Source: Escherichia coli
GTDB lineage: Bacteria; Pseudomonadota; Gammaproteobacteria; Enterobacterales; Enterobacteriaceae
Assembly: GCF_030013595.1 (NCBI RefSeq)
Contig: NZ_CP122768.1
Length of the DNA: 64,000 nucleotides
Strand: one strand, 5' to 3'
Of the stretch, positions 1,868-3,214 are shown one piece after another. A program made the position numbers and the translations under genes. Below the pieces are notes generated by a model. That model was not told the origin of the DNA, ran no database searches, and was given only the letters and a program-made list of their open reading frames with translations. Each line of letters opens with the position of its first letter. The first letter of the stretch is position 1.

Positions 1868-1876
1868 CGCCTGGCG
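1868..1876. repeat. 9-bp target-site duplication (left copy) CGCCTGGCG
   Basis: Identical 9-mer at 1868..1876 and 3206..3214 directly abutting the IS10 termini. Confidence 0.85.
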
Positions 1877-3205
1877 CTGATGAATCCCCTAATGATTTTT
1901 ATCAAAATCATTAAGTTAAGGTAGATACACATCTTGTCATATGATCAAATGGTTTCGCCAAAAATCAATAATCAGACAACAAAATGTGCGAACTCGATAT
2001 TTTACACGACTCTCTTTACCAATTCTGCCCCGAATTACACTTAAAACGACTCAACAGCTTAACGTTGGCTTGCCACGCCTTACTTGACTGTAAAACTCTC
2101 ACTCTTACCGAACTTGGCCGTAACCTGCCAACCAAAGCGAGAACAAAACATAACATCAAACGAATCGACCGATTGTTAGGTAATCGTCACCTCCACAAAG
2201 AGCGACTCGCTGTATACCGTTGGCATGCTAGCTTTATCTGTTCGGGCAATACGATGCCCATTGTACTTGTTGACTGGTCTGATATCCGTGAGCAAAAACG
2301 GCTTATGGTATTGCGAGCTTCAGTCGCACTACACGGTCGTTCTGTTACTCTTTATGAGAAAGCGTTCCCGCTTTCAGAGCAATGTTCAAAGAAAGCTCAT
2401 GACCAATTTCTAGCCGACCTTGCGAGCATTCTACCGAGTAACACCACACCGCTCATTGTCAGTGATGCTGGCTTTAAAGTGCCATGGTATAAATCCGTTG
2501 AGAAGCTGGGTTGGTACTGGTTAAGTCGAGTAAGAGGAAAAGTACAATATGCAGACCTAGGAGCGGAAAACTGGAAACCTATCAGCAACTTACATGATAT
2601 GTCATCTAGTCACTCAAAGACTTTAGGCTATAAGAGGCTGACTAAAAGCAATCCAATCTCATGCCAAATTCTATTGTATAAATCTCGCTCTAAAGGCCGA
2701 AAAAATCAGCGCTCGACACGGACTCATTGTCACCACCCGTCACCTAAAATCTACTCAGCGTCGGCAAAGGAGCCATGGATTCTAGCAACTAACTTACCTG
2801 TTGAAATTCGAACACCCAAACAACTTGTTAATATCTATTCGAAGCGAATGCAGATTGAAGAAACCTTCCGAGACTTGAAAAGTCCTGCCTACGGACTAGG
2901 CCTACGCCATAGCCGAACGAGCAGCTCAGAGCGTTTTGATATCATGCTGCTAATCGCCCTGATGCTTCAACTAACATGTTGGCTTGCGGGCGTTCATGCT
3001 CAGAAACAAGGTTGGGACAAGCACTTCCAGGCTAACACAGTCAGAAATCGAAACGTACTCTCAACAGTTCGCTTAGGCATGGAAGTTTTGCGGCATTCTG
3101 GCTACACAATAACAAGGGAAGACTCACTCGTGGCTGCAACCCTGCTTACTCAAAATCTATTCACACATGGTTACGTTTTGGGGAAATTATGAGGGGATCT
3201 CTCAG
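1877..3205 (+). mobile_element. IS10 insertion sequence (1329 bp), outside end at left
   Basis: Left terminus CTGATGAATCCCCTAATGATTTT at 1877; right terminus ...GGGGATCTCTCAG ending 3205; encodes a 402-aa IS10-type transposase; flanked by direct repeat CGCCTGGCG. Confidence 0.88.
1984..3192 (+). CDS. IS10 transposase (402 aa)
   Basis: ORF MCELDILHDSLYQFCPELHLKRLNSLTLACH..., recognised as IS10/Tn10 transposase; correct length and position inside the element. Confidence 0.9.
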   Translation: MCELDILHDSLYQFCPELHLKRLNSLTLACHALLDCKTLTLTELGRNLPTKARTKHNIKRIDRLLGNRHLHKERLAVYRWHASFICSGNTMPIVLVDWSDIREQKRLMVLRASVALHGRSVTLYEKAFPLSEQCSKKAHDQFLADLASILPSNTTPLIVSDAGFKVPWYKSVEKLGWYWLSRVRGKVQYADLGAENWKPISNLHDMSSSHSKTLGYKRLTKSNPISCQILLYKSRSKGRKNQRSTRTHCHHPSPKIYSASAKEPWILATNLPVEIRTPKQLVNIYSKRMQIEETFRDLKSPAYGLGLRHSRTSSSERFDIMLLIALMLQLTCWLAGVHAQKQGWDKHFQANTVRNRNVLSTVRLGMEVLRHSGYTITREDSLVAATLLTQNLFTHGYVLGKL

Positions 3206-3214
3206 CGCCTGGCG
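3206..3214. repeat. 9-bp target-site duplication (right copy) CGCCTGGCG
   Basis: Identical 9-mer directly after the IS10 right terminus. Confidence 0.85.

Follow-up and report, generated by a model that had tools for sequence, protein, structure and literature searches.

The window analysed here, 64,000 nt of Escherichia coli DNA, carries near its left end the gene polB, encoding DNA polymerase II (Pol II), in two parts separated by a copy of the insertion sequence IS10. The 5′ part (329..1876, plus strand; codons 1–516) begins at a GTG start codon at 329 and encodes the N-terminal and exonuclease domains together with polymerase motifs A and B. The 3′ part (3215..4018, plus strand; codons 517–783 and the stop) encodes motif C, the rest of the C-terminal part and the clamp-binding motif. 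Both parts match the structure of E. coli Pol II (PDB 1q8i_A), with 8 substitutions in the 5′ part relative to residues 1–516 and 100% identity of the 3′ part to residues 517–783. Excision of 1877..3214, corresponding to the element and one copy of the repeat that flanks it, fuses 329..1876 with 3215..4018 into an open reading frame of 2,352 nt, with 783 codons and no internal stops, and the restored protein aligns with 1q8i_A, and with the 3k57 series, across residues 1–783. Pfam recognizes four regions in this protein: DNApolII_N, the Pol II insertion domain, a family-B exonuclease domain and DNA_pol_B (residues 380–752).

The insertion lies at codons 514–516 and therefore cuts the DNA_pol_B polymerase domain, between motif B on its upstream side and the catalytic motif C on its downstream side. 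Motif A (DYKSLYPS, with D419) and motif B (KIIMNAFYG, K493–G501) are located upstream of IS10, and motif C (YGDTDS, residues 543–548, including the catalytic D545 and D547) is located downstream together with QLGLF (residues 779–783), the clamp-binding motif at the C terminus, so that motifs A, B and C, which a functional Pol II carries on a single polypeptide, are here divided between two. In the sequence as assembled, the polB frame runs for 15 codons into IS10 and reaches a stop at 1924, giving a 531-aa product with 516 Pol II residues and 15 residues encoded by the element. A look-up of this PolB–IS fusion product returned no record.

The region upstream of polB is intact. Right after the araD stop is a predicted LexA (SOS) box-like sequence, CTGTATAAAACCACAG (258..273, plus strand), which fits the LexA box consensus CTGT-N8-ACAG. 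Because this site is still present, the truncated polB may remain SOS-inducible. Between the LexA-box-like site and the polB GTG is a hairpin with a run of T residues, AACCAGGCT-ATACTCA-AGCCTGGTT-TTTT (286..314, plus strand). This hairpin is presumably the araBAD terminator; a terminator scan did not include it among its listed sites.

The element itself spans 1,329 bp (1877..3205, plus strand), exactly as proposed in the initial annotation, whose coordinates are correct to the base. It is 100% identical over these 1,329 bp to an IS10 arm of Tn10 on plasmid R100 (NC_002134.1 36132..37460), and many other plasmid-borne copies are identical to it as well. The element belongs to the IS4 family, and the NCBI annotation pipeline labels it ‘ISVsa5 family’. 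It starts on the left with the outside-end terminal inverted repeat CTGATGAATCCCCTAATGATTT (1877..1899, plus strand) and finishes with the reverse complement of CTGAGAGATCCCCTCATAATTT, the inside-end terminal inverted repeat (3183..3205, minus strand); counted by eye, 17 of 23 positions match between the two ends. A degenerate search for IS10-type ends across the 64-kb window finds only these two sites (1877, and 3205 on the minus strand), with 0 expected.

Between the ends, the transposase gene (1984..3192, plus strand) is an intact open reading frame of 402 aa, the full length claimed in the initial annotation, and scores 402.4 bits against the NCBIfam model transpos_IS4_2 (cut-off 152). Counting along the translation, D97, D161 and E292, the known DDE catalytic triad of IS10, are found at those positions. 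The gene for the antisense RNA RNA-OUT (IS nt 46–115; 1922..1991, minus strand) overlaps the start of the transposase gene and matches Rfam family RF00240 over its full length with 97.3 bits (gathering score 41); its predicted fold has an energy of −21.3 kcal/mol (z = −4.0), and its position agrees with the published description (PMC5006887). One Dam site, GATC, is located in the −10 region of pIN (IS nt 67–70; 1943..1946), where its role has been described (PMC5006887), and a second is located within the inside end (IS nt 1320–1323; 3196-3199). The element is structurally complete, as its two ends, its transposase gene, RNA-OUT and the two Dam sites are all in place, and all the IS10 hallmarks that we tested in the sequence are present, the one exception being the target preference.

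The two IS10 arms of Tn10 in R100 can be told apart by their neighbours: one adjoins jemA, a gltS-like gene, and the other adjoins tetD. The copy in polB is identical to the jemA-side arm. Because the published gene order, jemA...tetD-IS10-Right, places IS10-Right next to tetD (PMC5571418), we assign the jemA-side arm, and with it the polB copy, to the IS10-Left allele. An identity as IS10-Right is ruled out, as the polB copy agrees with the jemA-side arm at each of the 15 positions that distinguish the two R100 arms (IS nt 24, 25, 27, 47, 83, 107, 410, 425, 903, 1249, 1268, 1271, 1272, 1281 and 1300), leaving it 98.9% identical to IS10-Right at the same length. Six of these 15 differences are within the first 107 nt, which cover the outside end as well as the pIN/RNA-OUT region, and four amino-acid changes distinguish the left from the right transposase: V266I, L381S, A389T and A398V. 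RNA-OUT differs between the alleles at three positions. The difference at IS nt 83 affects the RNA-OUT loop and, in RNA-IN, the third nucleotide; that at IS nt 107 converts a G-C pair of the RNA-OUT stem into G-U; and that at IS nt 47 falls in the 3′ tail. Both alleles fold alike, with the left form slightly less stable (−21.3 versus −23.9 kcal/mol for the right form). Judged from these substitutions, antisense control between left and right alleles might be weakened.

The transposase gene is codirectional with polB. The end that carries pIN and pOUT, the outside end, is directed towards the 5′ part of polB, and transcription of RNA-OUT from pOUT is therefore antisense to polB. The inside end is directed towards the 3′ part and the neighbouring gene rapA (4182..7088). 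Two outward promoters, pIII and OUTIIp, have been described in IS nt 1000–1230, a segment that is alike in IS10-Left and IS10-Right (PMC11481808), and we likewise find no differences between the two R100 arms between IS nt 903 and 1249. Transcription from pIII and OUTIIp could extend through the polB remnant and rapA, countering any polar effect of the insertion. A consensus promoter scan of 1..4400 returned 0 sites and missed the known IS10 promoters as well, so it is uninformative about rapA expression.

A perfect 9-bp direct repeat, CGCCTGGCG, abuts both ends of the element, with the left copy (1868..1876) occupying polB codons 514–516 and the right copy (3206..3214) adjoining the inside end; the intact duplication reported in the initial annotation is thus confirmed on re-reading. 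The window contains this 9-mer 3 times (0.77 expected), a recurrence that is unremarkable by itself, but chance is excluded here because the repeat is flush with both termini and because a close relative has just one copy at its empty site (see below). IS10 prefers, but does not require, the symmetric target NGCTNAGCN. The target used in polB, C-GCC-T-GGC-G, is symmetric and agrees with this consensus at 4 of 6 specified positions. By the usual cut-and-paste mechanism of IS10, one IS10-Left copy would have transposed into polB, its transposase cutting with a 9-bp stagger at CGCCTGGCG, and repair of the gaps would have duplicated the 9 bp.

The closest complete genome to the window is that of strain HCP5S3_I2 (NZ_CM149870.1), isolated from pig faeces in the UK, which is 99.9% identical over the window. 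In a local BLAST comparison, the two are collinear in three blocks with 99.89%, 99.905% and 100% identity, and the window has only two large insertions relative to this genome, the IS10 of polB and another IS located near dnaJ. The polB gene of the relative has an empty site with a single CGCCTGGCG and differs from the restored open reading frame at 3 nt, resulting in 2 amino-acid differences, at both of which the window agrees with the K-12 protein. No decay of polB since its interruption is seen, because these two differences lie on the side of the relative and the C-terminal part matches its K-12 counterpart at every residue. The initial annotation had proposed a comparison with the parent strain genome as a check on strain specificity. 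Database comparisons support a private event: among 5,426 complete E. coli genomes, neither junction has a match covering at least 80% of the query, and the exact left junction has 0 matches in species-representative genomes and 0 in metagenome contigs. The insertion is thus a recent event confined to this lineage. No relevant publication came up in a literature search on IS10 and polB.

The host is a wild-type, non-K-12 E. coli, with espY1 between rluA and djlA, and with espX1 and a fimbrial operon between rpsT and nhaR. A laboratory K-12 origin, of the DH10B kind, is ruled out by the presence of espY1 and espX1 in the flanks and by the pig faecal origin of the closest relative. The two genes, at 8167..8943 (minus strand) and 47656..49077 (plus strand), respectively, are type III secretion effector genes as judged by collinearity with the annotated relative; they are absent from K-12, and neither has an NCBIfam match.

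Several other features of the window are recorded here as separate observations. The second IS (approximately 60945..62280) is situated between dnaJ and the mokC region, and the closest relative lacks it. It carries an IS4-family transposase open reading frame (60952..62232; NCBIfam transpos_IS4_1, 132.7 bits) and perfect terminal inverted repeats of 23–25 bp, CATAAGCGCTAACTTAAGGGTTG, and is flanked by a 12-bp direct repeat, GGGAGTGATCCC, at 60933-60944 and 62281-62292. It resembles IS186, which is located in the same neighbourhood in K-12. In the fimbrial operon, whose further open reading frames include 49962..50645 and 53121..54080 (both plus strand), the usher open reading frame (50658..52469, plus strand) encodes 603 aa, covers positions 1–613 of an 826-position usher profile and is likely a pseudogene. 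The annotation of the relative gives its usher an internal stop and marks its chaperone as frameshifted; the 227-aa chaperone open reading frame of the window is intact. In the interval from nhaA to the mokC region, a 426-aa open reading frame (56501..57781, minus strand) with an IS1/IS1595-type N-terminal zinc-binding domain adjoins a sulfatase gene and an OmpK-like gene; this open reading frame is present in the relative too. Finally, a ccdA/ccdB-family toxin–antitoxin pair is placed at approximately 17050..17600, in the apaH–folA interval, by collinearity with the annotation of the relative (16004..16554 in the compared piece).

We examined the distribution of IS10 in 5,426 complete E. coli genomes. 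IS10 of any kind is found in 1,902 of them, at 4,480 chromosomal places and with up to 45 places per genome. The two alleles were counted separately with the first 74 nt of the element as the query, a segment in which they share no exact 28-mer, so that megablast cannot cross-hit. The L-type outside end is present in 719 genomes, at 1,992 chromosomal and 284 plasmid places (maximum 42 per genome), and the R-type in 1,713 genomes, at 2,606 chromosomal and 1,871 plasmid places (maximum 44 per genome). The share of chromosomal places is 88% for the L-type (1,992 of 2,276) versus 58% for the R-type (2,606 of 4,477), and it follows from these counts that both types occur together in at least 530 genomes. 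Some strains have 24–42 L-type places, such as AR436 and AR_0374. The initial annotation had taken IS10 to be normally associated with Tn10, a view that these counts contradict: because 4,480 chromosomal places far exceed what Tn10 pairs could supply, IS10 in E. coli genomes is mostly free-standing rather than part of Tn10.

How the element came to lie in polB admits readings other than simple insertion. IS elements are repeats and a frequent cause of misassembly, and an IS10 copy from elsewhere might have been misplaced into polB; we consider this very improbable, as a misjoin would not give a perfect 9-bp duplication, the length made by IS10, exactly at both termini, nor leave polB restorable codon for codon, and the flanks on both sides are collinear with the relative. 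The element could also be an arm of a composite Tn10, the context in which IS10 was first described, or mark a larger deletion or inversion, as IS10 can promote such events in adjacent DNA. This reading comes close to inconceivable, given that the 64 kb contain a single pair of IS10 ends, that the neighbours of the element are the two polB halves rather than tet or jem genes, and that the duplication is intact on both sides, with collinear flanks. A composite Tn10, with two inverted IS10 copies flanking tetR/tetA/tetC/tetD and jemABC, is accordingly rejected for this window, which has one IS10. Rearrangement is refuted for the window as well, because it would leave differing 9-mers or non-collinear flanks, and the simple transposition without rearrangement favoured in the initial annotation is upheld by the collinearity of the rest of the window with a relative that carries the empty site.

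A different alternative concerns not the insertion but the autonomy of the inserted copy, which may have been moved by the transposase of an IS10-Right or a Tn10 elsewhere and be stuck without such a helper. In classical estimates, the activity of IS10-Left is 1–10% of that of IS10-Right. The laboratory literature calls the IS10-Left transposase inactive or weak (PMC11148124, PMC5571418), the four substitutions relative to IS10-Right are compatible with this, and the wider spread of R-type ends (1,713 versus 719 genomes), along with the genomes that carry both types, would offer possible helpers. Nevertheless, the catalytic residues are all intact; IS10 transposase acts preferentially in cis (PMC5006887); strain AR436 has the L-type outside end at 24 of its approximately 25 IS10 places, which is hard to explain by help in trans alone; and in NEB5alpha in continuous culture an IS10-Left copy hopped into a plasmid promoter, with the source copies mapped by the authors being IS10-Left (PMC11481808). 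We therefore regard dependence on a helper as somewhat unlikely. The L-type chromosomal spread and the hop in NEB5alpha together show that the left allele is mobile in practice, and the polB copy is probably able to move again. The initial annotation had called the element potentially still mobile on the grounds of its full-length transposase; that conclusion stands on the spread and the observed hop, but does not follow from the length of the open reading frame alone in an IS10-Left allele.

Our overall reading of the assembled sequence, which we hold with very high confidence, is that polB has received a simple, recent and lineage-specific insertion of IS10-Left, which should abolish Pol II activity and is probably still mobile. 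Nothing in the sequence contradicts the structural part of this reading, and the termini and transposase, whose alignment the initial annotation had named as decisive for its identification of IS10, both match IS10-Left, with the duplication in place. Directly observed are the anatomy of the locus, its sequence identities, the unoccupied site in the relative and the lack of either junction elsewhere. Element and mechanism are known and the target is non-essential; the private insertion site is the only new fact. As a marker absent from the 5,426 complete E. coli genomes, this site is useful for strain typing.

The consequences for Pol II follow from where the insertion falls. It parts the exonuclease domain and motifs A and B from motif C, the C-terminal rest and the β-clamp-binding tail. 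A family-B polymerase without motif C cannot polymerize. Because motif C, the remaining C-terminal part and the clamp-binding motif are severed from the N-terminal part, we infer that Pol II should be inactive in this strain, and the same conclusion in the initial annotation is sound. The strain would make at most the 531-aa truncated protein, without polymerase activity, and a fragment with the exonuclease domain could still be produced. With its catalytic motifs A/B and C split by IS10, polB in this strain is a disrupted pseudogene, and should be annotated as a pseudogene interrupted by IS10. Null mutants of polB are viable, with mild defects in replication restart, some lesion bypass and stationary-phase fitness. 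The strain should accordingly be treated as Pol II-deficient in work on the SOS response, replication restart and mutagenesis.

The census also bears on how the left allele is viewed. IS10-Left, the textbook dead arm of Tn10, is common in E. coli as a multi-copy solo chromosomal element, and an intact open reading frame in an IS10-Left allele should not be dismissed as inactive. A more speculative extension, which we think unlikely and offer tentatively, is that the ‘defective’ left type is an autonomous lineage expanding in wild E. coli, with left and right types partly escaping mutual copy-number control. Such escape might arise because the third nucleotide of RNA-IN is not the same in the two alleles; this nucleotide pairs with the loop of RNA-OUT, the site at which antisense pairing starts. 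If this were true, the polB insertion would be one fresh product of that lineage.

The polB copy can be compared with several known systems. With the IS10-Left arm of Tn10 it shares all 1,329 positions, the ends, the 402-aa transposase, RNA-OUT, the Dam sites and the 9-bp duplication, but it stands alone on the chromosome, within polB and without tet genes nearby. IS10-Right, the reference ‘active’ IS10, has the same length, organization and mechanism. Solo IS10 copies are also found in laboratory E. coli, in tonB and yncI of XL1-Blue and as IS10-Left and IS10-Right copies in DH10B, JM109 and NEB5alpha (PMC11148124, PMC11481808), where they likewise interrupt chromosomal genes. The laboratory copies, however, descend from Tn10 brought in during the construction of K-12 strains, whereas the host here is non-K-12, and the polB insertion occupies a site shared with no complete genome. 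Engineered polB (dinA) nulls of E. coli K-12 likewise have the Pol II gene disrupted; here an IS inserted spontaneously at codon 516, leaving codons 1–516 and the SOS-box region of the gene in place.
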